Shown here: piece after piece, positions 41,367 to 64,000 of the stretch | How positions within the stretch are numbered: position 1 is the stretch's first letter | Layout of the letters: each line of letters begins with the position of its first letter | From: Candidatus Pyrohabitans jungbluthii | GTDB lineage: Archaea; Hydrothermarchaeota; Hydrothermarchaeia; Hydrothermarchaeales; BMS3B | DNA: 64,000 nt | NCBI GenBank assembly: GCA_002010065.2 | Contig: MTMD02000006.1 | Span: 1 to 64,000 of the forward strand | Direction: 5' to 3' | The notes under the pieces: model-generated | The model's input: only the letters and a program-made list of their open reading frames with translations | The model's database searches: none | Told to the model about the DNA's origin: nothing | Made by a program: the position numbers and the translations under genes

Positions 41367-42347
41367 ATGCCAGAGCTGTGGTTGAAAATCGAGGAAGGTG
41401 CAGTCACTGAGGTCAAGCTAGATGGGATATCCGCAGCTCTAAAGAAGCCTGTAGAGTCCACAGAGATTCCTTTCTTTCTTGAGGCAGTAGGGTTTCTCCA
41501 ACGTTGTGGTTTCGGATTCAAGGTTCCAGAGAACTCGAAAGCTGAGGTCCAGGATCCTGGGGCTGAGGTTCCTACCACACCGAAAGAGAGACACTCTGGT
41601 GAAGACGAAAAAAAGCCAAGCGCTTTCTTCTGTATCCCTCACGACGAAAGGGAGAAAAAGATTCTCACAATTCTCGAGGGTGGAGAAAAGCTCGGTGCAA
41701 AAGAAATTGCAGAGAAGCTTGGTGGCATCAGCTCACGTGGATTGTCAAAAATACTGCGAAGCATGTATGAGAAAGGGCTCATATTGCGGGAAATAGAGGA
41801 GGAGAAGGGAAGGCCCTCGCGCTATATCTACTTCATACCAACGGAGCTCAGGGAAGAAAACCTGCGTGAAGCAATAATAGCTGTCTTCAAAGAGAGCGGA
41901 CGCAATCGTCTCAAAGCAAGGCAGATCGCAAAACGGCTTGAAAAGAGAGGCATCAGCATTTCCATCCCCAAGCTTAGAGTCGTACTGAAAGACCTCGCAG
42001 ACGAGGGCATACTGGATGTAGAGAAGCAGAGCCGCCCTCGCTACTACTCCTCAACAACGCAGCAGCCGGAGAAAGTTGCCTCAGAGTCACCATGGGCTGC
42101 TCCTCCAAAGGTCGAAGAGGAGAAGGTAGAGCTTTCCAGCGAGGAGGAGACAACCCTACAGGAGATTTACGATAAAGGGCAGGTATGGGACGACGAGATC
42201 AGCAGGGAAACGAGAAAGCTCTACAGGCAGCTCGAGGACAAAGGACTACTCAGAGCTTCGGTTACCACCTGGGATGAGGGGAAGAAAAAGTTCCGCCGCG
42301 CATTCTGGACCCTCACAGAGAAAGGCATTGCGGCTCTTGGAGGGTGA
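41367..42347 (+). CDS. Multi-winged-helix DNA-binding protein
   Basis: Three wHTH-like units (AKEIAEKL...LRSMYEKGLI; ARQIAKRL...LKDLADEGIL; LEDKGLL...WTLTEKG). Confidence 0.75.
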   Translation: MPELWLKIEEGAVTEVKLDGISAALKKPVESTEIPFFLEAVGFLQRCGFGFKVPENSKAEVQDPGAEVPTTPKERHSGEDEKKPSAFFCIPHDEREKKILTILEGGEKLGAKEIAEKLGGISSRGLSKILRSMYEKGLILREIEEEKGRPSRYIYFIPTELREENLREAIIAVFKESGRNRLKARQIAKRLEKRGISISIPKLRVVLKDLADEGILDVEKQSRPRYYSSTTQQPEKVASESPWAAPPKVEEEKVELSSEEETTLQEIYDKGQVWDDEISRETRKLYRQLEDKGLLRASVTTWDEGKKKFRRAFWTLTEKGIAALGG

Positions 42348-43791: not shown

Positions 43792-43929
43792 AAATGCGTT
43801 GGAAAATCTTTTCTTGGCAAAGTTGAGAGGGGGGAGAGGCGTGAAGTGGAGATGCGTTGATGACTCAAAGCCACTTGGAAGGTGCATCTATAGCGCCTCG
43901 ACAATAACAGTGAGGTGGGAGTTGGTGCC

Positions 43930-45450
43930 ATGAGCCGAGACCGCGTCATGATTGAATTGCTAGATTACTCATTAAGCAATCTAAAGAGAGAGTTGGAGCG
44001 GCTAGACGAATACATACAAGAACTCCAGAGGGAGAGGGAAAGGATAAGCATAGAGATAGAGAAGAAGCTCGAGGAGCTGAAGGCACCACCCGACATAGAT
44101 GTAGAAGAGCTGAAGAACTTCCTCAGAAACAGGGAGAAGTACATCCTGCTCCACAAGAGGGCAGATCAGTGGTGGATAGTCGTACCGAGATTTGTGAACC
44201 TTTACCTTGGTTGGCTGGAGCACGAGACGCCCTCCTTCAGGGTGTTTGCGATCAACAAGTACTTCAACTGGATTCTCGACCTGCCGAAGGAGATCAGGGA
44301 GAAAATAAAAGCCCCCGAGCCAGAGCCCTTCACGGTCTCAGATGGATTTCTCATCACCCCACCGGAGTTGCAGGATAGAGCCTGGCAGAAGTACAGAAAG
44401 CACCTCACCAGGAGAGAAGGGAAAGACAAGATAAGGATAAAAGCCGGGCACGAGTTCCTGCTTATCGCCAAAATAATAGAGGAGGGCTCTCTGCCCTTCG
44501 TCCCAAAGCCTGTTTCTGAGAAAGATCTGAGAGACTGGAACAAAATAAAGCTGAGAAGCCACCAGGAGAAAGCTTGGCAGCAGCTTCTTAAGTGGGGCGC
44601 TATCGGCATATTCTGGCCCTACGGCGCTGGCAAAAGCTACTTCGGGATATACCTCCTTGCAAGGATAACAGGGAGAAAGCTCGTGGTGGTTCCAACGGTT
44701 CTACTCAAAGAGCAGTGGATAAAGAGGATAAGAAAGCACATACCTGAGTTCGAGCATGAAATTGATGTAATAACCTACGCAGGCTATGAGAAAGTGAGAG
44801 ACAGGGAGTATACCCTGACAATATACGACGAGTGCCATCGATTGCCCGCGAACACCTACATCAGGCTCTCCACCATCAGAACCAAATATAGAGTTGGCTT
44901 GAGCGGTAGCCCCTTTAGGGAGGACGGCAGAGAGAACTACATCTTTGCCCTGACCGGCTATCCCCTGGGCATGAACTGGAACGAGTTTATCCGCCAGGGC
45001 TACGTGAACGTGCCCACATTCAAAGTCTACATTGTTAAGGACGAAAGAGAGAAGCTGAAAAAGCTTGACGAGCTGCTTGGAATCCCGCTTAAAACAATAA
45101 TCTTCTGCGACTACCTTGAGCTAGGTAGGAAGATCAGCAGCAAATTTGGCATACCCTTCGTTCACGGTGGCACAAAGAACAGGCTGGAGGTAATCAGAAG
45201 CAGCAGTACCGTCGTAGTCTCAAGGGTGGGCGACGAAGGCATATCCATTCCCGACCTTGAGAGGGTGATAGAGGTTGCCTTCCTAGGGAGAAGCAGGAGG
45301 CAAGAGGCTCAGCGCTTCGGCAGACTTATGCACAGCCAGCAGCGTGAACCGCAGCACATCATCATAATGACAGAAAGGGAGTTCAAGGAGTACCAGAGGC
45401 GACTGTATGCAATAACCGAGAGGGGATTCAGGATAGATATAGTGAGATGA
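43930..45450 (+). CDS. SF2 helicase, XPB/Rad25-like
   Basis: LRSHQ, PYGAGKS, YDECH, GLSGSPFREDG, VGDEGISIPD, QRFGR. Confidence 0.88.
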   Translation: MSRDRVMIELLDYSLSNLKRELERLDEYIQELQRERERISIEIEKKLEELKAPPDIDVEELKNFLRNREKYILLHKRADQWWIVVPRFVNLYLGWLEHETPSFRVFAINKYFNWILDLPKEIREKIKAPEPEPFTVSDGFLITPPELQDRAWQKYRKHLTRREGKDKIRIKAGHEFLLIAKIIEEGSLPFVPKPVSEKDLRDWNKIKLRSHQEKAWQQLLKWGAIGIFWPYGAGKSYFGIYLLARITGRKLVVVPTVLLKEQWIKRIRKHIPEFEHEIDVITYAGYEKVRDREYTLTIYDECHRLPANTYIRLSTIRTKYRVGLSGSPFREDGRENYIFALTGYPLGMNWNEFIRQGYVNVPTFKVYIVKDEREKLKKLDELLGIPLKTIIFCDYLELGRKISSKFGIPFVHGGTKNRLEVIRSSSTVVVSRVGDEGISIPDLERVIEVAFLGRSRRQEAQRFGRLMHSQQREPQHIIIMTEREFKEYQRRLYAITERGFRIDIVR

Positions 45451-48343: not shown

Positions 48344-48775
48344 ATGAACCTTTACAATCCTAAATGCAAGATCTGCCGTAGCGGGCATGCCGACAAAGTT
48401 AACCAGATGCTCATCGAAGGCAGACCCTACAGCGAGATCATCGCCAAGCTTGAGAAGCACATCCCGGGGCTCAGCAAGGCGAACATCACCAACCACAAGC
48501 GCCATTTCCCGGTAGTGCCCGAGGCAGTGAAAGAGTTTCAGAAGCAACTTGAGGAGGGGAAGCGCAAGGTCATTGACGACCTCGAGTTCCTTGAGAAGGT
48601 CAAGGCCAAAGCGGATGCTCTGCTTGACATCACCAGCGACCCGAGCGACCTTCAGAAGATAACCGCAGCCGCTGTCCAGGCAATGAAGCTCAAGTACGAG
48701 ATTTCCGGCGACGTCAACAACCCTGTGAAGGAGCTCCTGGAGGTCCTCTATGCTGAGGACGAAGAAGCTGGCTAA
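48344..48775 (+). CDS. Terminase small subunit (probable)
   Basis: CKIC...HKRH Zn-HTH N-terminus, helical; immediately upstream of TerL. Confidence 0.7.
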   Translation: MNLYNPKCKICRSGHADKVNQMLIEGRPYSEIIAKLEKHIPGLSKANITNHKRHFPVVPEAVKEFQKQLEEGKRKVIDDLEFLEKVKAKADALLDITSDPSDLQKITAAAVQAMKLKYEISGDVNNPVKELLEVLYAEDEEAG

Positions 48776-50084
48776 ACCTCTCAGGGATCCCGTCACCTTT
48801 GCAAAAAAGCTGCTTGGCTGGACACCTCACGAAGCGCAGGAGCAAATCCTCAGGGACAGGGCAAAGAACCTCACAGTCGCAGCAGGACGAAGATTCGGCA
48901 AGAGCGAGTGCATGGCAGTCTCCGCGATCCACTATGCCATAGCGCACCCTGGAAGCATTCAGTTCATCATCGCCCCAACCTACGACCAGGCACAGATTAT
49001 CTTTGACACCATCGTCAGGCTGCTTTCCAGGTCGCCGCTCATTCAGCTGGTGGATAAGGTGGTCTACACTCCCTTCCCGAAGCTCCGCTTTCTTACAGGC
49101 TCAATTATTCATGCCCGCTCCGCTGACAAGCCTCAGAACCTGCGAGGCCATAAGGCGCACCGCATAATCCTCGACGAAGCGGGCTACATTAAGGACGAGG
49201 CGGTCACCAACGTAATTGAGCCAATGCTCGCTGACTATGACGGAGACCTGATCAAGATTGGCACCCCTGCGGGAAGAAACCACTTCTATGACTCATTCAT
49301 CAGGGGGCTCGAGAGAAATGAGTACTACAGCAGCTACCAGTTCCCATCCTGGGTAAACCCGCACATCTCCAGGGAATACATAGAGCGCAAGAAGAAAGAA
49401 TACGGGGAGAACAGCATCCGCTTCCGCACCGAGTACATGGCGGAGTTCATAGACGACCAGAATGCTGTCTTCCCATGGCGCAGCATTCAGGCGTGCATCG
49501 AAGAAGATATAGAGCTCCTCGAGGGTAGGACCCATGCCAAGCAGCGCTTCGTCTTCGGCGTGGACGTGGCGAAGTACCTCGACTACACCGTAATCATCGG
49601 CATAGATATTGCCCAGGAGCCAGCGAAGCTCATATACTTTGACCGCTTCCAGCGCCTCCCCTGGGGAGAGATAGCCAGGAGAATCGAGGACATCCATGCA
49701 AGATTCTCGCCCCAGGCAATAGTTGTGGACAGCACTGGCGCCGGCGACCCCTTGCTGGAGATGGTCCAGCACATAGCACGAGGTATAACCATCACGGGTG
49801 GCACCGCAATAACTCAGCAGGGAAACATCACCAAGGTGCCAAAGACAATCCTGGTGGAGAGGTTAGCGGCTGCAATAGACAATCGCAAGGTCATCTTCCC
49901 CAACATCCCCGAGCTGATCAACGAGCTCAAGTACTTCGAGTACGTCCGCACGAGCTCGGGTAGCCTGAAAATGGAAGCTCACGAAGGCATGCACGACGAC
50001 TGCGTCATGGCCCTAGCTCTTGCTGTATTTGGAGCATTCCACGAGCCATCGCTTCCAGACATCGACGAATGGCCCTTCTTCTGA
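48750..50084 (+). CDS. Terminase large subunit
   Basis: Walker A AGRRFGKS, Walker B IILDEAG, IGTP, RNase H GVDVAKYLDYT and HDDCVMALAL. Confidence 0.95.
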   Translation: MLRTKKLAKPLRDPVTFAKKLLGWTPHEAQEQILRDRAKNLTVAAGRRFGKSECMAVSAIHYAIAHPGSIQFIIAPTYDQAQIIFDTIVRLLSRSPLIQLVDKVVYTPFPKLRFLTGSIIHARSADKPQNLRGHKAHRIILDEAGYIKDEAVTNVIEPMLADYDGDLIKIGTPAGRNHFYDSFIRGLERNEYYSSYQFPSWVNPHISREYIERKKKEYGENSIRFRTEYMAEFIDDQNAVFPWRSIQACIEEDIELLEGRTHAKQRFVFGVDVAKYLDYTVIIGIDIAQEPAKLIYFDRFQRLPWGEIARRIEDIHARFSPQAIVVDSTGAGDPLLEMVQHIARGITITGGTAITQQGNITKVPKTILVERLAAAIDNRKVIFPNIPELINELKYFEYVRTSSGSLKMEAHEGMHDDCVMALALAVFGAFHEPSLPDIDEWPFF

Positions 50085-50131: not shown

Positions 50132-51523
50132 ATGAGCATCTTTGACCTGCTGAAGCCGAAATCTTCGAGAATGGACCTGGCTCTCGCGGAGCTTCTGAAA
50201 GGGGTTGCAAAGGCTGCGGATGATAAAATTTATAATCCCGACTTTGAGCCAGAGGGCGGCTGGGATAAGTGGTGCGCCTGGGCTGCGAAGCAGGGCAAAA
50301 TAGCGAGGATGATTAGAAGCTTAGCTAAGAATGCAATGGCTTTCGACTTCTCTGGCGATGACGACAAGGCGTTGGAATTGGTGCAGAAGATGCGCCGGCG
50401 CACCCACCTTGATCTAATTCTCGTGCTCGCCTTCAAGGACTGGCTTGAATATGGACGCTGCTTCCTGGAAGTGGTGTGGGAGAAGAAGCGCATCGGGAAC
50501 AATGTTGTAGAGGACATCATCAAAATCAAGCGCGTTAACCCGATGACAGTCCGCGTTTTCAGAGACAACGAGGACGATGTGCGTGAGCTCCGGGACTTCC
50601 TGAAGCGTCACTTCCCGAATGTGGACAGGAGCAACATCAAAGAGGGCAGCGGTGACAACATCATAGGCTTCGTGCAGCACTTCAAGAGGGCTGAGGAGGG
50701 CAAGGCGGTATTCTTCAAGCCTGAGGAGCTTATCTTCATCCCGCGCTATCCCGACTACGACGCCCCCGACGGTGTCAGTCTGCTCAGGGAGAACTACGCC
50801 AATATCATGAACAAGCTCGGCACGGAGAAGTACCAGGCGATCATGCTCAAGCGCTTCGTGGACCACAAGCACAAGTTTAAAGTTCCTGAACGTTGGTGGC
50901 ATCGCATTGAGGAACTCCAGAGCAAAATCAAAAACATGTTGAAAGCGGGCGGTGACCTCTGGATCCCCGAGGGCATGGAGGTTGAAATACTCGAGCCGAA
51001 AGGCAATCCCCTAGCGACGATCAAAGCTCAGGAGCATATAGAGGACCAGGTAATCGCCGGCATGGGCTTCAGCGACAGCTTCACCGAGAGCAAGAGCAGC
51101 AACCGCTCTGTTGGTGAGGTGCAGCTCCAGTTCTTTGAACGCGATATTAGACCAGAGCGCTACATCTTCAAGGTCGTCATCGAGGACAGGATCATAATCC
51201 CCTATGTCAGGAAGAAGCTCGGACCCAAAGCGAAGCCACCGGAGATGGTATTCGAAGACCTCACGCCACGCGATGAGGTGCGCTGGGCTGCGGTGATGGC
51301 TTCCTACCTGCCCTACATGACCAAGTCGCAGATCAAGCGCCTCTTCGACGAGCTCGGCTACCCAGTGCCAAAAGAGGAGGAAAAAGAGTTCAGCGCAAAG
51401 GTGGACCTCGCAACTCAGAAGGGCGTGCCAAAGCCCGTGCTGACCGGAAGCGTTGACGTCAGAGAAGAGTTCGCGGAAGAAATCCATCGCCTCCGGAAAG
51501 AGCTCCTGGAGGTCTTCGACTGA
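50132..51523 (+). CDS. Portal protein
   Basis: Position after TerL; YGRCFLEVV, PDGVSLL, IPEGMEVEIL motifs; 463 aa. Confidence 0.8.
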   Translation: MSIFDLLKPKSSRMDLALAELLKGVAKAADDKIYNPDFEPEGGWDKWCAWAAKQGKIARMIRSLAKNAMAFDFSGDDDKALELVQKMRRRTHLDLILVLAFKDWLEYGRCFLEVVWEKKRIGNNVVEDIIKIKRVNPMTVRVFRDNEDDVRELRDFLKRHFPNVDRSNIKEGSGDNIIGFVQHFKRAEEGKAVFFKPEELIFIPRYPDYDAPDGVSLLRENYANIMNKLGTEKYQAIMLKRFVDHKHKFKVPERWWHRIEELQSKIKNMLKAGGDLWIPEGMEVEILEPKGNPLATIKAQEHIEDQVIAGMGFSDSFTESKSSNRSVGEVQLQFFERDIRPERYIFKVVIEDRIIIPYVRKKLGPKAKPPEMVFEDLTPRDEVRWAAVMASYLPYMTKSQIKRLFDELGYPVPKEEEKEFSAKVDLATQKGVPKPVLTGSVDVREEFAEEIHRLRKELLEVFD

Positions 51524-52798
51524 ATGCAGCTCTACGATTTCCTCAGCAAGGATGAGGAAGATGCGATCCGTGCCATTGAGGAAGCGCTTCTCAGGAAGAC
51601 AGCAGAATCAAGGAAGCGCGCGGTTGAAAAGCTCGCCAAGCTTCTCACCGTCAGCTACTACATCGGCGCAGAGAGGGCGCTCAAAGAAGTTGGCGCTGAC
51701 GTGCGCATCACCAGCTTGGAGATCAGAGCGCTCGAGAAGCTCATAGAGCAGGATGTAGCGCCAGCAATAAAAGAGATGTACGAGTTCCTCGAGCGCGACA
51801 TTAAGAGCGTCATCGAGGAAGGCATCCGGGAGGGACTTACCTACGACGAAATCTCTGCAAGGCTAAAGGAAAGGCTAAGAACAACCTTCGGCGAGGAGAT
51901 TCACTTTGACAGGCGTGGAAAGCTAAGGGAAGAGATCTACATTGACCGCAGAGGCAGGCTCAGAGTCAGGCAGGTTAAAATCACCCGCACAAAGACGCTG
52001 AAGCTTGACGACTACGCCGATCTCCTCGCAAGGACCAACGTAAAGAAAGCCTACGCCCTGGGGCACCGCGAGGGCTACGTCGCCGCTGGCCTGCGAAAGT
52101 GGAGGTATCGCAGCGTAGCAGATGAACGCACCAGGCCGCACCACTTAGCTCTTCACGGCAGAGTATTTGAGGTTGGCACAGCAGAAGAAGAGCTCGCCCT
52201 CCGCGTAATGAGCGAGCCCAACTGTAGATGCAGGCCCTCGCCATACTTCGACGATCCCAAGCTTGACACGCCTCAAGAGGTTTTCGAGCAGGAGAAGAAA
52301 AAATGGGCCCAGGAATGGCAGAGAGAGAAGGGTCTCGATTCTCTTGGGAAGTATCTAGAACCATTCGACAGAAAAGGCTTAGCACCTCCTTCCTATGATG
52401 AGCAGCTTAACTACCTCATAGAGAGGTTTAAGAAAAGCGAAGACATGCGCACCCTCCTTTCCATTACCGGGGAAAGCCCGCAAGCAAAAGCTAAAGAGAT
52501 CCTTGGAATCTCTCTCAGGCACTCCACATTTCACGGTACCGCTTCATCATACAGGCACATGGTGCAGGATGGGAGGAGGTACTCCCTGTCAGATGTTTTC
52601 AGCATAAAAAAGAGCCCGGAATGGGTAAGACGCGATCCTGATACCGGAGAATTTTTATTGCATGGAAAATCTAAAATATATCAGCGCCCAGTTTATATAA
52701 TATTGACACCTGACAGAAAAATTAAAACTTCATTTGTCATTACAAAAAGGAAAGAAGTTGAGAAGCTTAAGATGAGATTTAAAGAGGAGTTGAAATGA
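51524..52798 (+). CDS. MuF/gp7 minor head protein with C-terminal toxin-like extension
   Basis: ARTN...WRYRSVADERTRPHHLALHG...EPNCRC MuF signature followed by about 190 further aa. Confidence 0.85.
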   Translation: MQLYDFLSKDEEDAIRAIEEALLRKTAESRKRAVEKLAKLLTVSYYIGAERALKEVGADVRITSLEIRALEKLIEQDVAPAIKEMYEFLERDIKSVIEEGIREGLTYDEISARLKERLRTTFGEEIHFDRRGKLREEIYIDRRGRLRVRQVKITRTKTLKLDDYADLLARTNVKKAYALGHREGYVAAGLRKWRYRSVADERTRPHHLALHGRVFEVGTAEEELALRVMSEPNCRCRPSPYFDDPKLDTPQEVFEQEKKKWAQEWQREKGLDSLGKYLEPFDRKGLAPPSYDEQLNYLIERFKKSEDMRTLLSITGESPQAKAKEILGISLRHSTFHGTASSYRHMVQDGRRYSLSDVFSIKKSPEWVRRDPDTGEFLLHGKSKIYQRPVYIILTPDRKIKTSFVITKRKEVEKLKMRFKEELK

Positions 52799-53067
52799 AG
52801 AGGCTCCGAATAAGCTACGGGGACGAGCTGCTCAAAAATCCAGAGAAACGACCTGCAGAAGGCAAAATTAGAGCAGCGTACGTAAACAACAGAACAGGGT
52901 TAGTCTTAGGGAGGGGCGACATTGAGGTGGAGATCATAAGGGAGAACGGCGCTGATTATATCACCCTTCCCGAGGAGGTATACAGAGAATTGAAACTCAC
53001 AGATTACGACATGGACTGGTGCTCTGTCTATCTGAGGGAGGATGGTATCTTAGTAGAGCTTTTCTAG
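52795..53067 (+). CDS. Small protein coupled to MuF; immunity candidate
   Basis: ATGA overlap with MuF stop; 90 aa. Confidence 0.55.
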   Translation: MKRLRISYGDELLKNPEKRPAEGKIRAAYVNNRTGLVLGRGDIEVEIIRENGADYITLPEEVYRELKLTDYDMDWCSVYLREDGILVELF

Positions 53068-53086
53068 GGTTGTAAGAGGGGGTAGT

Positions 53087-53479
53087 ATGGATATTAACAT
53101 AAAGGATTTGACTTCTCGTAATTTGGTCAATCATTTTGTAATTGGCTATTTCGCTCTTTATGTAATCCTTGGCGATCAGTTTATTAATTATAAATTATTG
53201 AAGCAGATAGTCTTGGCGATTGTTGCAAGCTACTTGTTGTTTATTCCCGCAAGATTAATCGTCCGCATTCGTTGGGGAAGATGGGAAGAAAATCAAGAGG
53301 CGTACACGTACTATCACTTTAGAATATTCGCGGTTCTTCTCTCTCTTACTATAATCAAATTTATTGATATCATGAGAGGACTATGGCCGTGGTACAAACT
53401 GATTTTAGTTTGGTTGTTATCTTTTACAGCAGACTGGTTAACATGGTGGCTTTACAGAAAAGATACCACCGACTGCTAA
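53087..53479 (+). CDS. AT-rich four-TM membrane protein (moron)
   Basis: Four hydrophobic segments; AT-rich relative to flanking structural genes. Confidence 0.65.
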   Translation: MDINIKDLTSRNLVNHFVIGYFALYVILGDQFINYKLLKQIVLAIVASYLLFIPARLIVRIRWGRWEENQEAYTYYHFRIFAVLLSLTIIKFIDIMRGLWPWYKLILVWLLSFTADWLTWWLYRKDTTDC

Positions 53480-53495
53480 ATTCTACAACCACTAT

Positions 53496-53512
53496 CTGAC
53501 TTTCCTTTTTAA
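53496..53512 (+). promoter_or_regulatory. Viral late promoter motif copy 3 (protease)
   Basis: CTGACTTTCCTTTTTAA, 31 nt TATA-to-ATG. Confidence 0.75.
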
Positions 53513-53536
53513 GCTACTTCTCCTCAGCCTTTATTC

Positions 53537-54895
53537 ATGAGCGACGAGGTTACAGTAGACTTCACTGTAAGGGTTGCCGATTGCTTGGGCTTTTGTGCAG
53601 AGAAAGGCGACTTCGTCCCAGTGGTTGACCTGAAGAACGAGGACACCTCGAGGGGACTAAAGCGCAGGATCATCGCTGTCACCGAAGGCACACACAACGG
53701 CATACAGTTCCGGGCTAATGAAATTGAGGCGATGGTCCGGCGTGCCATTGAGGTGAAAGAGCAGGAGAATAGGAAGTACTTCAAGGTGCCTCTTGTTCTG
53801 GACCACAGCGATAGCTTCCTGGACAAAGTCGGAGCCACCTACAACCTCGAGTTCGGCAAGGACCCTGAGAAGGGGCTGCAGGCGGCAATAGCAGACGTGG
53901 AGTTCTGGAACACCACGCCCATGCTCAGAGAGGTTGCAGAGCGCGTGAAGCTAGACCCTGAGAACACCTTCTTCTCCGTCAGGGTGAGGGGCAGAATAGA
54001 GCAGGACGCAGAAGGGGAGTACCTTGCTGACATGACCCTGGTGCACATCGCCGTGGTAAACGAGCCCGCTGATCCCAATGCCAGGCTGATCTCCAATTCC
54101 AGAGGTGCCGATATTTCCCGGGAAATATTCGACTTTGGCGTGGTGCCGAGCAACCCGCCAAACTACCGCAAGGCGAGCGAGGACACACCCTGGGAAAAGC
54201 CTCGCCTTGAGGACTTCACCAGCAAGCGTTGGGATGAGCTGAGCGATGCGGAGAAGCGCAGAATAGCCCAGCACTTCGCTTGGGCTCCGAAGATGCCGCC
54301 CAACGCATTCACAGACCTCAAGTTGCCGCATCACCGCCCTAGCGACGGCGCCGTGGTGTGGAACGGTGTTCGCGCAGCAATGGCAGCACTCATGGGCGCC
54401 CGTGGTGGCGTTGACATTCCCGCGGCAGATAAGCGCAAGGTGTACAACCATCTCGCAGCTCACTACAGAGAATTCGAAAAAGAGCCTCCAGAGGCAAACT
54501 TCGCCAAATCTGACTTTGCTTTAAATACAGAAGGCTCGGAACTCAACAACAAAGGAGGTCTAAGCATGGAAGAAATAGAGAAAATCAAGACAGACCTCAA
54601 GAAAGAGTACGAGCAGAAGCTCGAGGAGGTCAAGCAGGAGTTCGCAGCGAAGATCAAGAAAATCGAAGAGCTGACCGAGCTCCGCGCGGAGATCATCGCG
54701 ATTTACCCTGAGGTTGACAGGGATTTCCTGAAGTCGCTCAACAGGGAGCAGCTGGAGAAGTACAAGGCGGACCTCAAGAAGCGCATGGTGGAAACCCAGA
54801 GCACCGAGAAGAGCAGGGACAACGCAGCCAAAGCCGAGGACCCGTTTGAGCTTGCCGAGAAGTACTTCGGCCCGGTTGAAGTGGGGGTGAGCTAA
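53537..54895 (+). CDS. Prohead maturation protease fused to accessory domain and scaffold
   Basis: LVLDH, FFSV, HIAVVNEPAD protease motifs; LKLPHH...GGVDIP...HLAAHY domain; C-terminal coiled coil. Confidence 0.8.
   Translation: MSDEVTVDFTVRVADCLGFCAEKGDFVPVVDLKNEDTSRGLKRRIIAVTEGTHNGIQFRANEIEAMVRRAIEVKEQENRKYFKVPLVLDHSDSFLDKVGATYNLEFGKDPEKGLQAAIADVEFWNTTPMLREVAERVKLDPENTFFSVRVRGRIEQDAEGEYLADMTLVHIAVVNEPADPNARLISNSRGADISREIFDFGVVPSNPPNYRKASEDTPWEKPRLEDFTSKRWDELSDAEKRRIAQHFAWAPKMPPNAFTDLKLPHHRPSDGAVVWNGVRAAMAALMGARGGVDIPAADKRKVYNHLAAHYREFEKEPPEANFAKSDFALNTEGSELNNKGGLSMEEIEKIKTDLKKEYEQKLEEVKQEFAAKIKKIEELTELRAEIIAIYPEVDRDFLKSLNREQLEKYKADLKKRMVETQSTEKSRDNAAKAEDPFELAEKYFGPVEVGVS
54566..54895 (+). 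CDS. Nested in-frame scaffold protein
   Basis: Internal GGAGGT RBS + ATG in frame; own late-promoter motif at 54510-54526. Confidence 0.65.
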   Translation: MEEIEKIKTDLKKEYEQKLEEVKQEFAAKIKKIEELTELRAEIIAIYPEVDRDFLKSLNREQLEKYKADLKKRMVETQSTEKSRDNAAKAEDPFELAEKYFGPVEVGVS

Positions 54896-54896
54896 G

Positions 54897-55367
54897 ATGG
54901 TGGAGACTGCAGCTTCACCTGTAAGGGGGTACCTCCCTGAAGGTATCCTGAGCGCGAAGGTGGATACCACGCAGACCAAGGACGCCGACGGCTACTACTA
55001 CAAGGCTGGGGATCTCGTGGAGATCGTTGCCGACGAAACCGTGGGCAAGGCAACCACCTCTGGTAAGGCGATAGGCGTGCTCGTTTCGAGCATCCACGAG
55101 AGCTCTGCACCCGAAGGGCTTGACTCCAGGCACCGCGTTTCCGTGCTCACGAAGTTCAGGGCTATCGTTGAGTTCACCGCGGAGGGTGCGATCAACGCTG
55201 GAGACGCCGTTACCACGAGCACAACCAACCCAGGCAGAGTGAAGGCGCTGCCCCCAGAGACTATCGACGAAGGCGGCACCGCAACGCACACCATAGACTA
55301 CCGCGACCCCATCGGCATCTGCTGGAAGGGCGGAGCCGATGGTAGCAAGGTGCTCGTGCTGATATGA
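54897..55367 (+). CDS. Head decoration/cement protein
   Basis: KAGDLV, KAIGV, AINAGDAV, PIGI repeats typical of capsid cement proteins; precedes MCP. Confidence 0.65.
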   Translation: MVETAASPVRGYLPEGILSAKVDTTQTKDADGYYYKAGDLVEIVADETVGKATTSGKAIGVLVSSIHESSAPEGLDSRHRVSVLTKFRAIVEFTAEGAINAGDAVTTSTTNPGRVKALPPETIDEGGTATHTIDYRDPIGICWKGGADGSKVLVLI

Positions 55368-55377
55368 GGTGGTGGAG

Positions 55378-56256
55378 ATGACGACCGCAGCTTTCACACA
55401 GAAGGATTTAGCATACCAGGACAGCCCCGCCCTTAAGCCTGAAGTCATAAGGGCGAGGGTCAAGCAGGTCTACGAAAAGACGCTGATAGGCAGGCAGCTT
55501 CTGAGTGGACCCGAGCGCATCGAGGGTGATTCCGTCTCCTGGATAGAAGAGGGTGACATCGTAGGCAACGTGGACTGGATCAGCGAGCTGGGCGGTTTCC
55601 CAAAGCTGGACTTCAAGTATGGCAAGAAGGCCAAGCCTATCCGGCCCTACGGTGCGTATTTCGACGTTACGCTGATGGAGCGCAGATTCTCCCGCGTCCA
55701 GACTGTGGGCAGAAAGATCAATCGCAGCGTTTACAAGATGCGCCGCTTTGAGGACGATCTGATCTTCAACGCCATGCTCAATGCAACCGGTATAAACACA
55801 TTCGACGGTACCAACTGGACTGACACCACGGCAGGGGACCCCATCGCAGACCTCGAGCATGCCAAGACGCTCATCTACGACGCTACGGATGGGGGTGAGG
55901 CTACCGACGTCATCATGAGCCCCATAATGTACGAGCGCCTCACCAAGTTCGACGTGGTACGCAACAACAACTACCTCCAGGCCCAGGTGGTCAAGACCGG
56001 TGTAATCCCTGGCCTCGCAGGGCTCAACATAATCAAGGATAAGGCCGTTGATCCCAACGACGACGGCGTGGTGCTCGTGATCCGCAGAAAGGACATAGGC
56101 TTTATGGCTGAGAGCATACCCCTGACTACGGTCAATGTCTCCGGTGAGAACCTCGGCAACCCGATGATAGACAACCGCTACTTCAACTTCGCCATGGCAG
56201 AGCCAGTCATCGACAGCCCAGAGTACATCTGCAAGATCACCGGCTTGAAGGCGTAA
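55378..56256 (+). CDS. Major capsid protein (HK97 fold)
   Basis: Size and position; ELGGFP, EDDLIF, DPIADL, VIMSP, GLAGLNII motifs. Confidence 0.82.
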   Translation: MTTAAFTQKDLAYQDSPALKPEVIRARVKQVYEKTLIGRQLLSGPERIEGDSVSWIEEGDIVGNVDWISELGGFPKLDFKYGKKAKPIRPYGAYFDVTLMERRFSRVQTVGRKINRSVYKMRRFEDDLIFNAMLNATGINTFDGTNWTDTTAGDPIADLEHAKTLIYDATDGGEATDVIMSPIMYERLTKFDVVRNNNYLQAQVVKTGVIPGLAGLNIIKDKAVDPNDDGVVLVIRRKDIGFMAESIPLTTVNVSGENLGNPMIDNRYFNFAMAEPVIDSPEYICKITGLKA

Positions 56257-56303
56257 GCGCCTCTCTTTCCATTTTCCGGGAAATATGTTTTGAGGTGATG
56301 TAG

Positions 56304-56591
56304 ATGCCAAAGAATGAACTGCTTGTGGAAATCAGAGCCGCACACTTCGAGAGCAAGCACCTGCGAGGCAAGAGGGGCGACAGGGGCAAGATACCAGCGG
56401 ACGAGAAGCTTCAGACGCCTGCGGAGCGCGATGCATTGAAGAACGGCAACCTCGTCGTTATCGACCTCGAGCCGGTGGAGAGCAAGCCAGCACCTGAGGA
56501 GAAGCCCAAGAAAAAGGGAAAGGGCAAGAAGGCTGAGGAAAGCAAGCCAAAGGGACCAGAGAAAAGCGAACCTGAAGAAAACGCCGAGTAG
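56304..56591 (+). CDS. Small virion-associated protein with K/E/P-rich tail
   Basis: Follows MCP; GAGGTGA RBS. Confidence 0.6.
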   Translation: MPKNELLVEIRAAHFESKHLRGKRGDRGKIPADEKLQTPAERDALKNGNLVVIDLEPVESKPAPEEKPKKKGKGKKAEESKPKGPEKSEPEENAE

Positions 56592-56600
56592 GGAGGGGAA

Positions 56601-56921
56601 ATGGAAGAGTCCCTCCTCATGAAGTACCTCGACAGCAAGTTCGAGGACCAGCAGAGGCAGATTTCATCCATCTGCAAGAAGCTAGACAAGCTAATCGAAG
56701 ATAACAGAAATGACCACGTGCAGCTTTACAGCCGCATTGGGGTGCTCGAGCGCTCTATCACTGAGCTCAGTCAGACAACCACAGCAATCGAAGATCATGA
56801 ACAGAGGATCCGCGCTCTGGAAACATTCAAGAATAGAATAATCGGGGCTCTCGTGGTAATTCCCGCAGGCGTTAGCACAATGGTGGTGAAGCTTAAAGAC
56901 CTGTTCTCTGGGGGGAACTGA
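56601..56921 (+). CDS. Coiled-coil + C-terminal TM protein (XhlA-like)
   Basis: DHEQRIRALE followed by a hydrophobic segment. Confidence 0.55.
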   Translation: MEESLLMKYLDSKFEDQQRQISSICKKLDKLIEDNRNDHVQLYSRIGVLERSITELSQTTTAIEDHEQRIRALETFKNRIIGALVVIPAGVSTMVVKLKDLFSGGN

Positions 56922-56922
56922 C

Positions 56923-57291
56923 TTGGCAGCCACTATCGACGACGTGAGGGCACAGATTGGCGACACCGACCCAGACAACTACATCTTCGGCGACCCTGAG
57001 ATCCAGAGCGCTCTGGACGAAGCTCAAGCAATCATAGAGGCGGAAGGGGGAAATGTTAGCAGTATACTGGGCAAGAGGGCGCAGAAGCTGCTCGCCGCCG
57101 CCTTCCTGGTTGACATGAAGACCGGGAACATAAAAGAGCGCAACGTCAAAACAATCCGCGAGGGCGATGCCTCGCTGGACTTTGAAGACCTCTCTGCGAA
57201 GGCTAAGGAGTGGCGCGCCGAAGCTGAGAGGCTGATTGACAAGCTCAGACCTCTGCCCTTTGGTGTGACCAACGATTTCTTCAGTGAGTGA
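56923..57291 (+). CDS. Head-tail connector (adaptor)
   Basis: TIDDVRAQIGDTD...FGDPEI...IREGDASL pattern. Confidence 0.7.
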   Translation: MAATIDDVRAQIGDTDPDNYIFGDPEIQSALDEAQAIIEAEGGNVSSILGKRAQKLLAAAFLVDMKTGNIKERNVKTIREGDASLDFEDLSAKAKEWRAEAERLIDKLRPLPFGVTNDFFSE

Positions 57292-57653
57292 AAATGTTCT
57301 CGGCTTTAGACTGGCCCTATAAAATTGAGCTGGTAAGAATCACAGAGGGCTACACCGACCAGAGCACTGGTGACTATATCCCTCCCCAGGAGAGCGTGGT
57401 GGAGATAAAGGGACACATCAGCGATGTTACGGTCAAAGACCTGCAGCGTGCACCGGAAGGGCTCTATGAGCTGGGCGACAGAAGGCTCTACGTAGCTAAG
57501 AGCTACGGCATCGCCGAGGGAGATATAATCAAAATCACAGAGGCGGACGGCTCAGTGAGCGAGTGGAAAGTTGTGCGCAGGGAGAGAAGCTACGGCTTGC
57601 TTGAGAGGTACGCAGCCTCGAGAGAGGCGTTTCTGCTCAGGCGGAGACAATGA
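57288..57653 (+). CDS. Head closure protein
   Basis: GYTDQSTGDY, LQRAPEG, GDII...W beta-rich; position. Confidence 0.65.
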   Translation: MKMFSALDWPYKIELVRITEGYTDQSTGDYIPPQESVVEIKGHISDVTVKDLQRAPEGLYELGDRRLYVAKSYGIAEGDIIKITEADGSVSEWKVVRRERSYGLLERYAASREAFLLRRRQ

Positions 57654-59899: not shown

Positions 59900-60304
59900 G
59901 TGGCGCTTGTGGAGTATAGCGTTAAGGATGTAACCGTCTTTATCGACGGCGTTGAAGTGGAAGACATCGCAGAACTCACCATCACGCCCAAAGGAGAGGA
60001 CAACGTAACGCCAGTGAAGGACTGGAGCAATAGAACAATAGGCTGGAACGTGAAGGATGACACCGACGCAGAGGGCACCATCGGCTTAAAGGCGCAGAGC
60101 AAGACCAACCAGCTGCTCATGGACATCGTCAAAGCCAAGCGCGGCGTGCAGGTCGTTGTGAAGAGCAACAACAAAGAGGCAACGGGCTTCTCGAAGATGA
60201 GCATCGACGACTGCCACTTCTCCTGGCCGGAGTTCAAGCCCGAGGCAGAGGAGCCCACGTGGAGCTGGAAGTTCATAGGCACAAACTTCGATATCGAGTA
60301 CTGA
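59900..60304 (+). CDS. Tail tube protein
   Basis: YSVKDVTVFIDG, GTIGLKAQS, WKF; follows sheath. Confidence 0.75.
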   Translation: MALVEYSVKDVTVFIDGVEVEDIAELTITPKGEDNVTPVKDWSNRTIGWNVKDDTDAEGTIGLKAQSKTNQLLMDIVKAKRGVQVVVKSNNKEATGFSKMSIDDCHFSWPEFKPEAEEPTWSWKFIGTNFDIEY

Positions 60305-60314
60305 GGTGGTGTAG

Positions 60315-60626
60315 ATGGCAAAGAAGGGCATTGATTATTCTAAGATATATGTGGCAGACGATCCTATAACAATCGAAGTGAACGGAGTGGAATTCAAGCT
60401 AAAGGAACTGAGTTCCGGAGAGTACTATGATATCCTTGAATCCTGCAGCCGTGGAAGTGATTTTGACAGGAAAAAGTACAGCCATAAGCTCGTCCAAGCT
60501 GCTGTGATAGAGCCAGATATTAACGCAGCAAAATTAAAACCTGGTGTGTTAGCAGTATTGGTCAACGAAGTCGAAAATTCTCTGGGTCTCTCTGAGGAGG
60601 CATTGCGTCACATTAAAAAAAAGTAG
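60315..60626 (+). CDS. Tail assembly chaperone (gpG-like)
   Basis: FKLKELS...AVIEP...LKPG; ends in slippery A AAA AAG before TAG. Confidence 0.75.
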   Translation: MAKKGIDYSKIYVADDPITIEVNGVEFKLKELSSGEYYDILESCSRGSDFDRKKYSHKLVQAAVIEPDINAAKLKPGVLAVLVNEVENSLGLSEEALRHIKKK

Positions 60627-60805
60627 AATCTAAGTTTCATCTTTACTTTTTAGCTGAACAATTCGGCGACTTAGAATTGGAAAGGGTCAATAAGCTGCCC
60701 ATTCACCGTGTTTTAGAGTGGCTTGAATATTTCAAGCAGAAGCATGAAAAAGTTAAGGCAATTACTATTGATAGCTCAGAGGGACACACGTTCAGGTTTT
60801 CTTAG
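60623..60805 (+). CDS. -1 frameshift extension of tail chaperone (gpT-like)
   Basis: Open -1 frame with no ATG: VESKFHLYFLAEQFGDLELERVNKLPIHRVLEWLEYFKQKHEK... Confidence 0.75.
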   Translation, partial: VESKFHLYFLAEQFGDLELERVNKLPIHRVLEWLEYFKQKHEKVKAITIDSSEGHTFRFS

Positions 60806-61348
60806 CTATTCATTATTGTAAAATTGTGCTATTTTTTGTAAATGATATTCTGAAGGTTGTTTACATTCTGATTTGTCTTTCCAATTTTGAGAAATTTCAC
60901 GCCTACACACATCTTCCAAAATCAATTGAATTGCCTCGAATGCTGTCATACCTTCAGACATTATTATACGATCATCTTTCTTTAGGGTCCCATATTCCCC
61001 TCCTCTAGGTTCCCACTTGTAGGGTATGGTAGCCCCATTACCACACACTAAAACCATTGAAATACTTTCAAACATTTTTTCAGGTATATATTTTCTTGAT
61101 CGAGGCGATCTCCCCACTGGATGGAAGACTATTTCGAGTTTCGTATTGGTAAAAAATTTATTGACTATTTTATTTGATTCATAATCAAAAAACTCAAAGT
61201 TCTCAAGTACTATCTTTTTCTCGTCGTAAAAAAAACCTCTAATGGATAAATTCATATAGACTTCTTTCCATCGTGTTTCAATTTCGTTCCTTAATTTTTC
61301 AACTATCTTATCAATCTCTTTAATAACAAAACTTAAGTGTCTACTCAT
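60806..61348 (-). CDS. AT-rich moron protein, unknown function
   Basis: 180-aa ORF overlapping the upstream moron gene. Confidence 0.65.
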   Translation of the reverse strand: MSRHLSFVIKEIDKIVEKLRNEIETRWKEVYMNLSIRGFFYDEKKIVLENFEFFDYESNKIVNKFFTNTKLEIVFHPVGRSPRSRKYIPEKMFESISMVLVCGNGATIPYKWEPRGGEYGTLKKDDRIIMSEGMTAFEAIQLILEDVCRREISQNWKDKSECKQPSEYHLQKIAQFYNNE

Positions 61349-62096
61349 TAAACCTCCCCAATTCTACAGAATAGAAATATTCTACTAGTAACCCTGGACT
61401 CACATTTCTGTTTCTTCTCCAACTTGTAATAATTTTATTCTTAAGTCTATCTGTATTTGTTGAGGTAATCCTGGTTGGGGAGATAGGTAGATACCAACCA
61501 TTATTTATAGCAGTTTCTATAACTTTAGGAGCCTCCTCATAAAGCCAATCTATTGTTTTTATTACATAGTTTTTATCTCTTCTATGAATAAAGAACCTAT
61601 ATATCTTCTCCATAGCAAATACCCAATCAAAAATTTCGTCATATAATCCAGCAATTATTATCGACTTAAGTGTTGGGATTTTAGGCTTTATTTCTAATTC
61701 TGGAAAGAATCTTATAATGGAATCATCAATATATAATAAATGGGCAAATTTTATAACATACTCAAATCCATAAATATGAGCATAATCTTTGAATAAGTTT
61801 TCGTAATGCAATTTTGTAATATGGTCATACATGTTGTATTTAGATCCCATGGTCTTAACTGTGATCTCAATGTAATCAGAATATTTTATAATAAAAGGTT
61901 CCATCTCTTTTAACATTTTGTCTACTTTGTTTAAAGTCTCTTCTTCGAATATTTCAAGTTCATTGTATTTAAAGAATGGCAGTGCTTTCCATTCTCTAAT
62001 AAATTCCTCTTTACTGGGTCTGCCAAAAGATGGTCCAGAAGGGTGATACACACCAATTTTTGGATGATAAACAGAAACAACATTAACGGACGCCAT
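61341..62096 (-). CDS. AT-rich moron protein, unknown function
   Basis: 251-aa ORF with GGAGG RBS. Confidence 0.7.
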   Translation of the reverse strand: MASVNVVSVYHPKIGVYHPSGPSFGRPSKEEFIREWKALPFFKYNELEIFEEETLNKVDKMLKEMEPFIIKYSDYIEITVKTMGSKYNMYDHITKLHYENLFKDYAHIYGFEYVIKFAHLLYIDDSIIRFFPELEIKPKIPTLKSIIIAGLYDEIFDWVFAMEKIYRFFIHRRDKNYVIKTIDWLYEEAPKVIETAINNGWYLPISPTRITSTNTDRLKNKIITSWRRNRNVSPGLLVEYFYSVELGRFNE

Positions 62097-62343
62097 GTAT
62101 TAGCCTCCAACCTTACATCATTAATTACCTCACCTTTTTGCGCCCACCCAACTATATCATATACCTATATCTCTATCATCTATCATAACTTATACCCATA
62201 TCACCGTATATGTTTATTGTATATTGTATATACCTATACTTTCGTATAGTTACACCAACTCTTTGATATATAAAATTTATTGTTCGGTTGTCTGCAAAGC
62301 CTTGGCAATCACGTTGATGTTGCAGTCCTGGGCATCGGGGTTA

Positions 62344-62967
62344 TTACTGATATGCTTTATCCACATCTTCCTCTAGCTCTTTCAGTCTCTTTTTTAATCT
62401 CTCATATTCCTCCTTATCAATACTCCTAGCTTTTTTTAATTCTTGTATTTCTTGATATATCTCATCCAATTTCGCCTCAATATTCGCCAACCTGTCTGTG
62501 CGATAACTTGTATAATAAATTGGTAGTTTCTCATATTGTAGCTGTAATTTTTCTATTTTGGGTAAGACTTTGCTTAAATTCTGATGGACTTCTGCGAATT
62601 GCTGAGCGATTTTCAAAGTTTTTAGAACAGGAATTTGAAGCTCTCTATATAGAGATATTGTTTTAGAGATTGACGAAATAGCTGCCATAGTATTCGCCAA
62701 ACTTTTTTCTAATCTATCAAGCTCAGGGTATTTTTCATGATATTCACTCAAAATTTGTTTTGCTTTTTCTTTTATTGAAATGTCATCTGATTTTGAGAGT
62801 TCCTTTGCTATGAAGTAAGCTTCAATCGGGAGTGTATCTAAATGTCGCTTTATCAAGTCTAAGCATTCCAAATGTGTATCCTCATCTTTTGCTTTCTCCT
62901 TGATTTCTTCCATAATTTTTTGAGCATCTTTTGAAGAGACCAACTTTTCTGACATATTTTTCACCAC
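62344..62967 (-). CDS. Helical/coiled-coil moron protein
   Basis: HEAT-like LSKSDDISIKEKAKQIL segment and C-terminal coiled coil. Confidence 0.65.
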   Translation of the reverse strand: MVKNMSEKLVSSKDAQKIMEEIKEKAKDEDTHLECLDLIKRHLDTLPIEAYFIAKELSKSDDISIKEKAKQILSEYHEKYPELDRLEKSLANTMAAISSISKTISLYRELQIPVLKTLKIAQQFAEVHQNLSKVLPKIEKLQLQYEKLPIYYTSYRTDRLANIEAKLDEIYQEIQELKKARSIDKEEYERLKKRLKELEEDVDKAYQ

Positions 62968-63188
62968 ACTTTAAGTATAAGAGCCACAGTTAGAATGATT
63001 ATAAAAACTACACTTCCCGCAATCCCTGAACTTTTGCTAATTTTAAATAAACCCGCAAAATATACTCCAATTAATCCGTATGCCACCGCCCACAGTATTA
63101 GAGTATTTGATGTAAGTGCATCCACTATTGTGATTATTACCAACCATAGCAGAATAAAACCAACTGTGTATCCAGTAGCTACCCCCAT
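62961..63188 (-). CDS. Small three-TM moron protein
   Basis: 75 aa, hydrophobic; overlaps next gene. Confidence 0.6.
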   Translation of the reverse strand: MGVATGYTVGFILLWLVIITIVDALTSNTLILWAVAYGLIGVYFAGLFKISKSSGIAGSVVFIIILTVALILKVW

Positions 63189-63227
63189 GACTTTATTTTA
63201 TAAATAGGGCCTATAAAAAAGTTTTCT

Positions 63228-64000
63228 ATGCCTTCAGTAAGAGACCTCTTTCTTAGGATCGGACTTCATGACACCGCATCTGGGAAGATGTTGAAAATAA
63301 TGAAAAGTTCTGATGCAGTGCATAAACAATTCCAGAAAGTGGGTAGTAGCGCGGAAAAATTAGGCAAGCAAATGGGGAGTGTAGCTAAATTCTTTAGAGA
63401 AATGGATACAATTGAAAAAGACATTATTAGAGTATCTCAGCAACATAATAGGGCAGTCAAAAAGCTTGCCCAAGCTTATATAAATCTAAAATGGAAAGTT
63501 AAACAGTATAAAAGGGAGGTATTAGCACCAGAACTTAGAAAGGTAGGGCGGTTTGCAAGGGAACATGCGCAACAACTAAAAGCAATGGGAGTTGCAGCTA
63601 CCGCTACTATGAGTGGGCTACTCTGGAAGGCACAAACGTACGAGAAATCTTTAGCAACTCTGCGGGCGCTCACTGCTGATAATGCAGAAGAGTATGAATA
63701 TTATCTATCTTTGATTGAAAAAAATAAGGGAGGGCTTTTTTCGAAGTCTGATATCGCAGCAACTCTCGCCTATGCTAAGGCCAACCGTCTCACCAGAGAA
63801 GAACTTGAGACCCTTCTTCCCTATGCAAAATCTGCTGCAGCAATGTTTGGTGAGGACTTACAACTTGCCTTCATTGCCATGGTAAGGGCGATGAAATATG
63901 GAGAGGCGGAACTTGCAGAGAGAATCGGATTACAGCTAAGAGAGAACGCAGTCAACCACATCGCCCTTAAACTCTATGGCAAAAGGCTGTCACAACTTAA
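63228..64000 (+). CDS. Tape measure protein (N-terminal part)
   Basis: MPSVRDLFLRIGLHDTASGKM... Ala/Lys-rich helical open frame to window end; position after TAC. Confidence 0.8.
   Translation, partial: MPSVRDLFLRIGLHDTASGKMLKIMKSSDAVHKQFQKVGSSAEKLGKQMGSVAKFFREMDTIEKDIIRVSQQHNRAVKKLAQAYINLKWKVKQYKREVLAPELRKVGRFAREHAQQLKAMGVAATATMSGLLWKAQTYEKSLATLRALTADNAEEYEYYLSLIEKNKGGLFSKSDIAATLAYAKANRLTREELETLLPYAKSAAAMFGEDLQLAFIAMVRAMKYGEAELAERIGLQLRENAVNHIALKLYGKRLSQL

Follow-up and report, generated by a model that had tools for sequence, protein, structure and literature searches.

Does a tailed virus residing in a hydrothermal archaeon build into its capsid an enzyme meant for the next cell, and does it encode beside that enzyme a protein that restrains it in the cell that makes it? 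The question is raised by two overlapping genes, one encoding a MuF minor head protein with a long C-terminal extension (hereafter the tail) and the other a protein of 90 residues. Both lie in the 64,000 nucleotides analysed here (the window), which are the first 64 kb of contig MTMD02000006.1 (C6) of Candidatus Pyrohabitans jungbluthii, a deep-sea archaeon whose cellular genome of 1.99 Mb in 15 contigs is 99.95% complete. The original prediction, made from the letters of this DNA, held that the tail is a ribonuclease (RNase) injected upon infection and that the small downstream gene protects lysogens. On the strength of structure models and comparisons among relatives we propose, with about even confidence, that the pair is a capsid-packaged RNase effector and its cognate inhibitor, carried on the MuF protein of an archaeal provirus.

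The MuF gene, its tail and the coupled small gene

The 424-residue protein (P0001) is a MuF minor head protein. Residues 92–237 match the Pfam family Phage_Mu_F (PF04233; expectation value E 8.5e-16, 59.1 bits against a cut-off of 29.6), 20 PHROG head-morphogenesis or minor-head families match the protein, and its core is matched in 20 phage records, among which the 15 rows listed span residues 86–240. The gene lies beside the portal gene in a terminase–portal–head module, in the order large terminase (TerL), portal, MuF, protease/scaffold, a cement-like protein and the major capsid protein. Every sequence element on which the original prediction was built is present: the MuF open reading frame (ORF; 51524–52798, + strand) and the 90-residue ORF (52795–53067, +), the overlap of the ATG of the latter with the TGA of the former (ATGA at 52795–52798), the PNCRC motif (residues 232–236, positions 52217–52231), and the C-terminal stretches RHMVQDGRRYSLSDVFSIKKSP, FLLHGK and RPVYIILTPDRKIKTSF, which lie within residues 344–415. 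The C-terminal domain had also been described as AT-richer, and the guanine-plus-cytosine (GC) content does fall from 0.55 in codons 1–262 to 0.473 in the linker and 0.396 in the last 95 codons. It is 0.476 in the small ORF and 0.364 in a hydrophobic ORF that follows (hereafter the membrane ORF), and stands at 0.542 in the portal gene and 0.556 in the protease/scaffold gene.

Homologous ORFs of 88–98 residues overlap or abut the MuF stop codon at all seven distinct loci with the tail, namely the window, G009, G036, L017, L018, L019 and L004–L007 (four records with identical proteins, counted once). Because the same two families are paired in 7/7 distinct loci, the arrangement of MuF tail and small ORF is not a chance one, and the coupling of the two genes claimed at the outset is borne out both here and in the discordant pairs described below. 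Protease/scaffold homologues also come after the pair in L002, L003, L007, L017 and L018. In the collinear module of L009 and L010, which encode the same proteins, a MuF protein of 244 residues has neither tail nor small ORF and is followed directly by the protease/scaffold gene. A distant archaeal-virus MuF protein of 511 residues (L008:2860–4395) bears a tail with the motif HELGHH, of the HExxH type, and is followed by a 112-residue ORF (L008:4438–4776) unrelated to the small-ORF family; neither that tail nor that ORF has a Pfam match, and together they may form a metallopeptidase-type effector pair.

Comparison among relatives reveals that tail and small ORF are swapped together, as a low-GC cassette, at a fixed junction. 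In the same-family relative G009, a member of Candidatus Hydrothermarchaeota, the MuF protein (428 residues) is 96% identical to that of the window in the core, up to the CRC motif, 41% identical in the linker and 26% identical over the last 95 residues; its downstream ORF of 93 residues is 27–28% identical to the small ORF of the window, and the next head gene is highly similar again. At the nucleotide level, blastn aligns 50696–52308 at 92.1% and 53495–57646, the stretch that includes this head gene, at 90.6%, with no alignment between. A contig of run X5 likewise loses its match exactly at 52308, and the cassette type of the window is present, at ~95–97% identity, in contigs of runs X4 and X7, which come from other studies. 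L017, an Archaeoglobus profundus provirus, and L018 share 91% of the core, 65% of the tail and 58% of the small ORF. Within the Archaeoglobus-type group, P0022 and P0025 share 91% of the core and 65% of the tail, and P0025 and P0027 share 74% of the core and 89% of the tail. These discordant core and tail identities therefore indicate repeated exchange. The small ORF goes with the tail in two clearly discordant pairs; over all pairs, its identity correlates with that of the core at a Spearman coefficient of 0.74 and with that of the tail at 0.53. The variable C-termini expected among MuF homologues were thus found. Of the predicted polymorphism, what stood is allele exchange within one MuF-borne family; shuffling among unrelated folds was not seen, save for the distant HExxH tail of L008.

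Three further observations concern the cassette and the protein that carries it. The breakpoint (52290–52308, found also in L002 and L007) lies right after a conserved '...EQEKKKWA', ~25 residues beyond the CRC motif, a stretch that might serve as a junction motif when cassettes are exchanged. One PHROG family, phrog_115 ('minor head protein'), aligns with MuF residues 87–421 (E 4.4e-13), an alignment that spans the tail. The membrane ORF has no family match in Pfam, PHROGs and the other libraries searched and is not present at the equivalent position of G009; contigs of runs X4, X5 and X6 contain length variants of it, with joints that skip 110–144 bases. The ORF might be a moron that encodes, for instance, a superinfection-exclusion protein or a second immunity protein.

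The small protein (P0002) has no family match in Pfam, PHROGs and the other family libraries tried, and none of the seven members of its family matches PF04014 or a related model at E up to 1. Its model, built from these seven sequences, is mostly beta, with a predicted local distance difference test (pLDDT) value of 88.4. VIA-align finds 60 chains at Z of at least 2 and none at 5, all of them weak matches, including B3 domains (Z 4.3, 3.0 and 2.9), MraZ (3.8), SpoVT (2.4), PhS018 (2.4), AbrB-N (2.2) and MazE (2.0); Foldseek finds nothing in the PDB at E ≤ 0.001. In the ESM Atlas the protein matches a MazE_antitoxin cluster at template-modelling (TM) scores of 0.45/0.54 and an unnamed archaeal cluster at 0.62/0.57. 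The B3, MraZ, SpoVT, AbrB and MazE folds make up what we take to be the swapped-hairpin or cradle-loop barrel group, and these weak likenesses suggest that the small protein might possibly be a swapped-hairpin barrel of the AbrB/MraZ/B3 kind. A complex prediction for the tail (alignment A4) with the small protein (alignment A5) returned a score of 0.00, which is no answer and is evidence neither way.

Through its ATGA coupling, the small gene is part of the late head operon. Such a position suits a role in protecting the producing cell while virions are assembled better than the protection of lysogens originally envisaged, and the coupling offers no argument for the small ORF being expressed independently in lysogens. 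An archaeal-TATA-box-like sequence, TTTATATAATA, is located at 52692–52702 (+), inside the 3' part of the MuF gene and ~96 bases 5' of the small-ORF ATG; it sits in an AT-rich coding stretch (VYIIL codons) and may be there by chance.

Family, predicted fold and conserved residues of the tail

Turning to the tail itself, neither the window protein nor any of the 11 members of alignment A4 has a Pfam match there up to E 10, and searches of 11 family members with the PBECR1–5, MuF_C, DUF4258 and Colicin_D models likewise gave no match at E up to 10. PHROGs (searched with the whole MuF protein, to E 0.1), NCBIfam, PADLOC and PDB sequences yielded no usable match. A word-index search with residues 290–424 returned only the query itself among 187 candidates. 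An exhaustive HMMER search of 1.84 billion representatives gave nine proteins at E ≤ 0.001, including the short relatives P0003 (109 residues, 40% identity) and P0011 (146 residues) and one fragment of 31 residues (P0003, P0005 and P0011 being those looked at); the six long matches (1,258–3,053 residues, two to six short stretches each) were set aside as probable compositional matches. A search with the family profile recovered five short proteins and 13 longer ones (398–428 residues, one of 361). All 13 of the latter, query counted, carry PF04233, and one is an Archaeoglobus profundus 'minor capsid protein'. Several of the short matches start within the MuF linker, on contigs of 622–3,660 bases, and are probably fragments; P0011 and P0029, on contigs of 8.3 and 11.4 kb, might stand alone. 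A metagenome scan with P0011 led to two loci (L023 and L024), which were rejected as their ORFs are unrelated low-complexity proteins. Within the phylum, three of the 38 genomes searched have the tail, each time on MuF, and no second copy or orphan cassette of the tail or small-ORF family occurs elsewhere in the present genome. As far as seen, the tail family appears to reside on the MuF proteins of archaeal viruses. The MuF proteins of phiE255 and Pseudomonas phage Bise, possible MuF_C carriers, are short.

The AlphaFold2 model of residues 291–424, built from an 11-sequence alignment, has a pLDDT of 89.8 and a predicted TM score of 0.76. It comprises three N-terminal helices, then helix 48–58, helix 65–73, four strands (77–80, 87–92, 99–104 and 110–115; model numbering) and a final helix, and the predicted helix–helix–four-strand core agrees with the layout of the BECR fold. 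When the model was compared with 48,161 PDB chains by VIA-align, the first 15 of the 50 rows shown were all BECR-type toxin or RNase entries: colicin D (two entries, Z 6.0–6.1), the C-terminal domain of a sequence-specific ribonuclease, three toxins of contact-dependent inhibition (CDI/CdiA-CT), and the PrpT/ParE, YoeB, RelE, YafQ and BrnT toxin–antitoxin complexes. The best match is 8ey4_A, a CdiA-CT chain (Z 6.3, 80 residues aligned). The 15 rows have Z values of 4.7–6.3 and root-mean-square deviations of 2.8–4.7 Å over 67–86 aligned residues, within model residues ~37–130, and by hand count 26 of the first 34 rows bear toxin- or RNase-type titles.

Foldseek against BFVD gives as its best match a phage protein named 'Colicin D' (E 0.034, probability 0.96) and, at rank 12, a 'Phage MuF C-terminal domain' protein. 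By features, the nearest named clusters of the ESM Atlas are PBECR3/PBECR2, followed by EndoU, Ntox35, Colicin_D and MuF_C (0.79–0.83, values that serve as leads only); by structure, the Atlas's own model of the protein matches a DUF4258 cluster at TM 0.67/0.70 over residues 332–424. The three comparisons are partly independent of one another and, without proving homology, point to one fold class, BECR. The original assignment of the tail to BECR/DUF4258-like RNases thus stands as to the fold class of a confident model, with the DUF4258 cluster among its matches, and does not stand as to sequence family. The outcome of the structure search that had been suggested for the C-terminus is similarly divided, with colicin D and other BECR-type entries ranked best and the scores modest (Z no higher than 6.3, Foldseek E of at least 0.03).

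Candidate active-site residues are R344/H345, D349 and T402, with H345 in model helix 48–58 and T402 in model strand 110–115; the window protein reads R344-H345-x3-D349, and its T402 is followed by a basic run. Among 21 family sequences, position 402 (strand 4) is Thr in 18 and Ser in two of the 20 sequences that reach the column, position 349 (first core helix) is Glu or Asp in 20 of 21, and position 345 is His in 10 of 21, mostly preceded by Arg or Lys. The dipeptide [RK]H is kept in four of five subfamilies. Iyer et al. describe the BECR/PBECR configuration as a His in the N-terminal helix together with Ser or Thr in strand 4 (PMC5512222), and Zhang et al. give the colicin D motifs as '[KH]K, Hxx[ED], [ST], [TS]xxK' (PMC3482391). 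The residue pattern of the tail would fit an active enzyme.

A putative virion-delivered RNase and its rivals

We propose that the C-terminal ~95 residues may be a metal-independent endoRNase of the BECR fold, similar to colicin D, DUF4258 and PBECR domains. The MuF protein would be built into the capsid at the portal and would exit with the DNA, in the manner of SPP1 gp7 and Mu F-type proteins, delivering the RNase to the newly infected cell, where it would cut RNA of the host or of a competing element. The 90-residue protein, translated in step with MuF from one late mRNA, would bind the RNase and keep it inactive in the cell that produces it, and perhaps in lysogens as well. Tail and partner make up a single cassette, exchanged by recombination at a set point just past the MuF core. 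Possibly, the purpose is to harm non-immune rivals, as put forward by Jamet et al., or to aid early host takeover or counter-defence, as put forward by Iyer et al. Packaging and ejection, RNA cleavage and silencing by the partner are carried over from what is known of MuF and SPP1 gp7 and from earlier proposals on MuF fusions (PMC5512222, PMC5576092, PMC3482391). A bolder version, which we offer tentatively and judge somewhat unlikely as a whole, is that the tailed viruses of hydrothermal archaea (Hydrothermarchaeota, Archaeoglobus and relatives) possess their own capsid-delivered MuF RNase family with single-chain swapped-hairpin inhibitors, an allelic cassette that would act as a weapon of kin discrimination or superinfection between lysogens.

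Several results weigh against an RNase effector. By sequence, the tail is recognised by no library, and hhalign of the A4 family profile with phage Mu gp30 gives a probability of 2.8%. Foldseek with the tail model finds nothing at E ≤ 0.001 in the PDB, where 8ey4_A ranks 4 and colicin D ranks 32 and 48, or in BFVD; the VIA-align Z values are likewise modest, as Z below 8 may reflect merely a common arrangement. Zero polar residues are invariant across the whole tail family. Finally, the co-variation of tail and small ORF is of a kind that physical linkage alone could give.

Other points on the same side lead to a specific alternative, the one that survives best and that we nonetheless consider unlikely: the tail would be a non-catalytic, lineage-specific C-terminal domain of MuF that binds RNA, DNA or the portal, the small ORF would encode an assembly partner or chaperone, and the exchange would be structural mosaicism. 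The tail is found solely on MuF (13/13 longer matches, query counted, several of the short ones probably being fragments) and is kept across MuF cores that are just 25% identical, a distribution that fits an old dedicated structural domain. The presence of a 244-residue MuF in L009 and L010, lacking both tail and small ORF, argues that neither is required for head assembly in this lineage. The residues point both ways. His345 is missing in the Archaeoglobus-type subfamily, 11 of the 21 sequences (Ala by hand alignment, a gap in the computed one), which retains a His at the H337 position, and the equivalent domain of phage Mu F is regarded by Iyer et al. as catalytically inactive (PMC5512222); the strand-4 Thr/Ser and the helix acid, on the other hand, are near-invariant, and the basic–His pair persists in all subfamilies but one. 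Rates and gene arrangement divide in a similar manner: in favour of the structural reading, the tail evolves no faster than the core in the L007-type group (69–83% against 71–84% identity) and the small gene is coupled to MuF in translation, within the late head operon; against it, the cassette is a sharp low-GC island.

In a further alternative, the preferred pairing of RNase and inhibitor is kept and virion delivery is given up. Tail and small protein would then be an intracellular toxin–antitoxin-like pair serving provirus maintenance or the abortive exclusion of other viruses, with the RNase acting in the lysogen or producer. The fold class is indeed common to the RelE, ParE, YoeB and HigB type II toxins, and the model of the partner is weakly AbrB/MazE/SpoVT-like (Z 2.0–2.4; the MazE_antitoxin cluster of the ESM Atlas). 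We regard this as improbable, given that every full-length example of the tail is part of a virion protein, that the partner lies downstream and not upstream with both genes in the late head operon, and that neither family stands alone elsewhere in the genome. Equally improbable is a coincidental resemblance to a generic two-helix, four-strand meander, with an unrelated function of the tail, which the low scores (best Z 6.3, Foldseek E ≥ 0.03, Atlas feature scores below 0.9 that are leads only) would allow and which is opposed by the convergence of VIA-align on the PDB, Foldseek on BFVD and the Atlas on one fold class, with no scatter, and by motif positions that suit the BECR class.

Provirus setting and relation to known systems

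The RNase–inhibitor pair that we favour would belong to the late genes of a tailed virus, on the + strand at ~48.7–60.6 kb of the window (Table 1). Because this module sits in a 1.99-Mb genome of 15 contigs and because the same-family relative G009 is from Hydrothermarchaeota, the element is a provirus of an archaeon. It looks temperate, given a tyrosine integrase on the same contig, beyond the window (C6:74022–74516), and the archaeal, temperate setting assumed by the original prediction is therefore supported. The tail genes of the module include a DUF3383 sheath-like protein and an XkdN-like tail chaperone (60315–60626).

Table 1. Features of the late module around the MuF gene, in window coordinates
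Feature	Position	Strand	Basis
Large terminase (TerL)	48750-50084	+	
Portal gene, Mu-type, directly 5' of the MuF gene	50132..51523	+	Pfam Portal_Mu E 2.1e-11; PHROG portal families
MuF minor head protein gene, 424 residues (P0001)	51524..52798	+	ORF; Pfam; PHROG
MuF core domain, residues 92-237, PNCRC at its end	51797..52234	+	Pfam Phage_Mu_F
Low-GC variable cassette, GC 0.419 (MuF residues ~263-424, small ORF and membrane ORF)	52309..53494	+	blastn, GC
C-terminal domain as modelled, MuF residues 291-424	52394..52795	+	AlphaFold2 model
BECR-like core within the C-terminal domain, ~residues 337-415	52532-52768	+	
Small ORF, 90 residues (P0002), candidate cognate inhibitor or immunity protein	52795..53067	+	Homologues, AlphaFold2 model
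AT-rich hydrophobic ORF (membrane protein), 130 residues	53087..53479	+	Hydropathy, GC 0.364
Protease/scaffold-type head gene, where similarity to relatives restarts	53537..54895	+	blastn

Two neighbouring regions deserve mention. The + strand tail module is broken by a low-GC island at 60806–62967 with three minus-strand ORFs of 180, 251 and 207 residues, placed between the XkdN-like chaperone and an ORF that starts at 63228; the GC content of positions 60001–64000 is ~0.37, against ~0.51 for the genome, a value found on each contig. The three ORFs have weak coiled-coil-type matches only (arcadin-4/SMC-like, E 5e-5, far below cut-off). On the 5' side of the late genes, the + strand encodes a protein with several winged-helix matches (41367–42347) and a 511-residue helicase of the ERCC3/RAD25 type (43915–45450), which probably belong to the early or replication region of the provirus.

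Bacteriophages are already known to carry MuF–BECR fusions, and also MuF toxins followed by small ORFs (PMC5512222; PMC5576092). In the survey of Jamet et al., an ORF of fewer than 150 residues follows 89.4% of the 191 MuF genes of toxin type and 25.5% of the 952 short ones, a pattern that these authors used as an argument for MuF toxins (PMC5576092). The survey covers bacteriophages and bacterial genomes, and its main text nowhere uses the word 'archaea' (PMC5576092). A table of Zhang et al. (2012) includes Euryarchaeota among the lineages with MuF systems and BECR families (colicin D, Ntox49) among those delivered by MuF (PMC3482391); DUF4258 is equated with Ntox49 in a preprint (10.64898/2026.08.28.747851). 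The Hardycor1 paper, in the passage concerned, notes a long-type MuF in a halovirus and no more. We found no such pair described for an archaeal virus in the literature searched, where a 2026 paper on archaeal proviruses (PMC13573593) or supplements could already mention such genes. Because the principle is established and Zhang et al. (2012) list Euryarchaeota with MuF systems, the advance would be one of extension and not of kind.

Little is known of the effectors that archaeal viruses inject, or of toxin systems acting between archaea. Should the tail be an active RNase with a cognate inhibitor, the locus would offer a compact case, open to testing, of protein warfare waged through virions in archaea, and would supply two sequence families new to the domain libraries, a toxin-like tail and its partner, with naturally diverged alleles for studies of specificity. 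Were the RNase–inhibitor reading true for hydrothermal archaea at large, this would be the first polymorphic toxin–immunity system delivered by archaeal virions.

Among known systems, CdiA-CT/CdiI provides the best structural match (8ey4_A) and shares the organisation of a C-terminal toxin and a downstream immunity gene exchanged at a fixed junction. In CdiA-CT that junction is marked by the VENN motif; here it is '...EKKKWA', past the MuF core, and delivery would be by the virion and not by a surface filament. Unlike type II RelE/ParE modules, the tail is fused to MuF in all full-length proteins, and its partner lies downstream in the head operon and not, as antitoxins usually do, upstream. 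With the colicin D transfer-RNA nuclease and its immunity protein ImmD, and with DUF4258, the tail shares the fold class, a helix motif of a basic residue and His followed by an acid, and an alcoholic residue in strand 4. It has no detectable sequence homology to them, and its His–acid spacing is Hxxx[DE] and not Hxx[ED]; P0002 is, as far as family searches show, unrelated to ImmD or Imm22.

The closest parallels are the MuF fusions of bacteria and their phages. The MuF polymorphic toxins described by Jamet et al. (2017; PMC5576092) and Zhang et al. (2012; PMC3482391) likewise combine a long MuF, a variable C-terminal extension and a prophage context with a small ORF of fewer than 150 residues directly 3', and have short MuF relatives that lack this ORF; unlike them, the variation seen here is mostly allelic within one domain family, and the tail is a candidate toxin. 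The MuF–PBECR fusions of Iyer, Burroughs, Anand, de Souza and Aravind (2017; PMC5512222) likewise sit among virion genes, and their products are predicted to enter the capsid and to be injected. The window tail departs from these in lacking a sequence match to Pfam PBECR1–5 or MuF_C (with the hhalign result for Mu gp30 given above), in its archaeal host, in the three-helix extension before the core, and in the conserved small partner gene that follows. The locus thus fails sequence membership in PBECR, MuF_C and DUF4258, but in architecture it appears to work like the MuF–PBECR fusions and the MuF polymorphic toxins.

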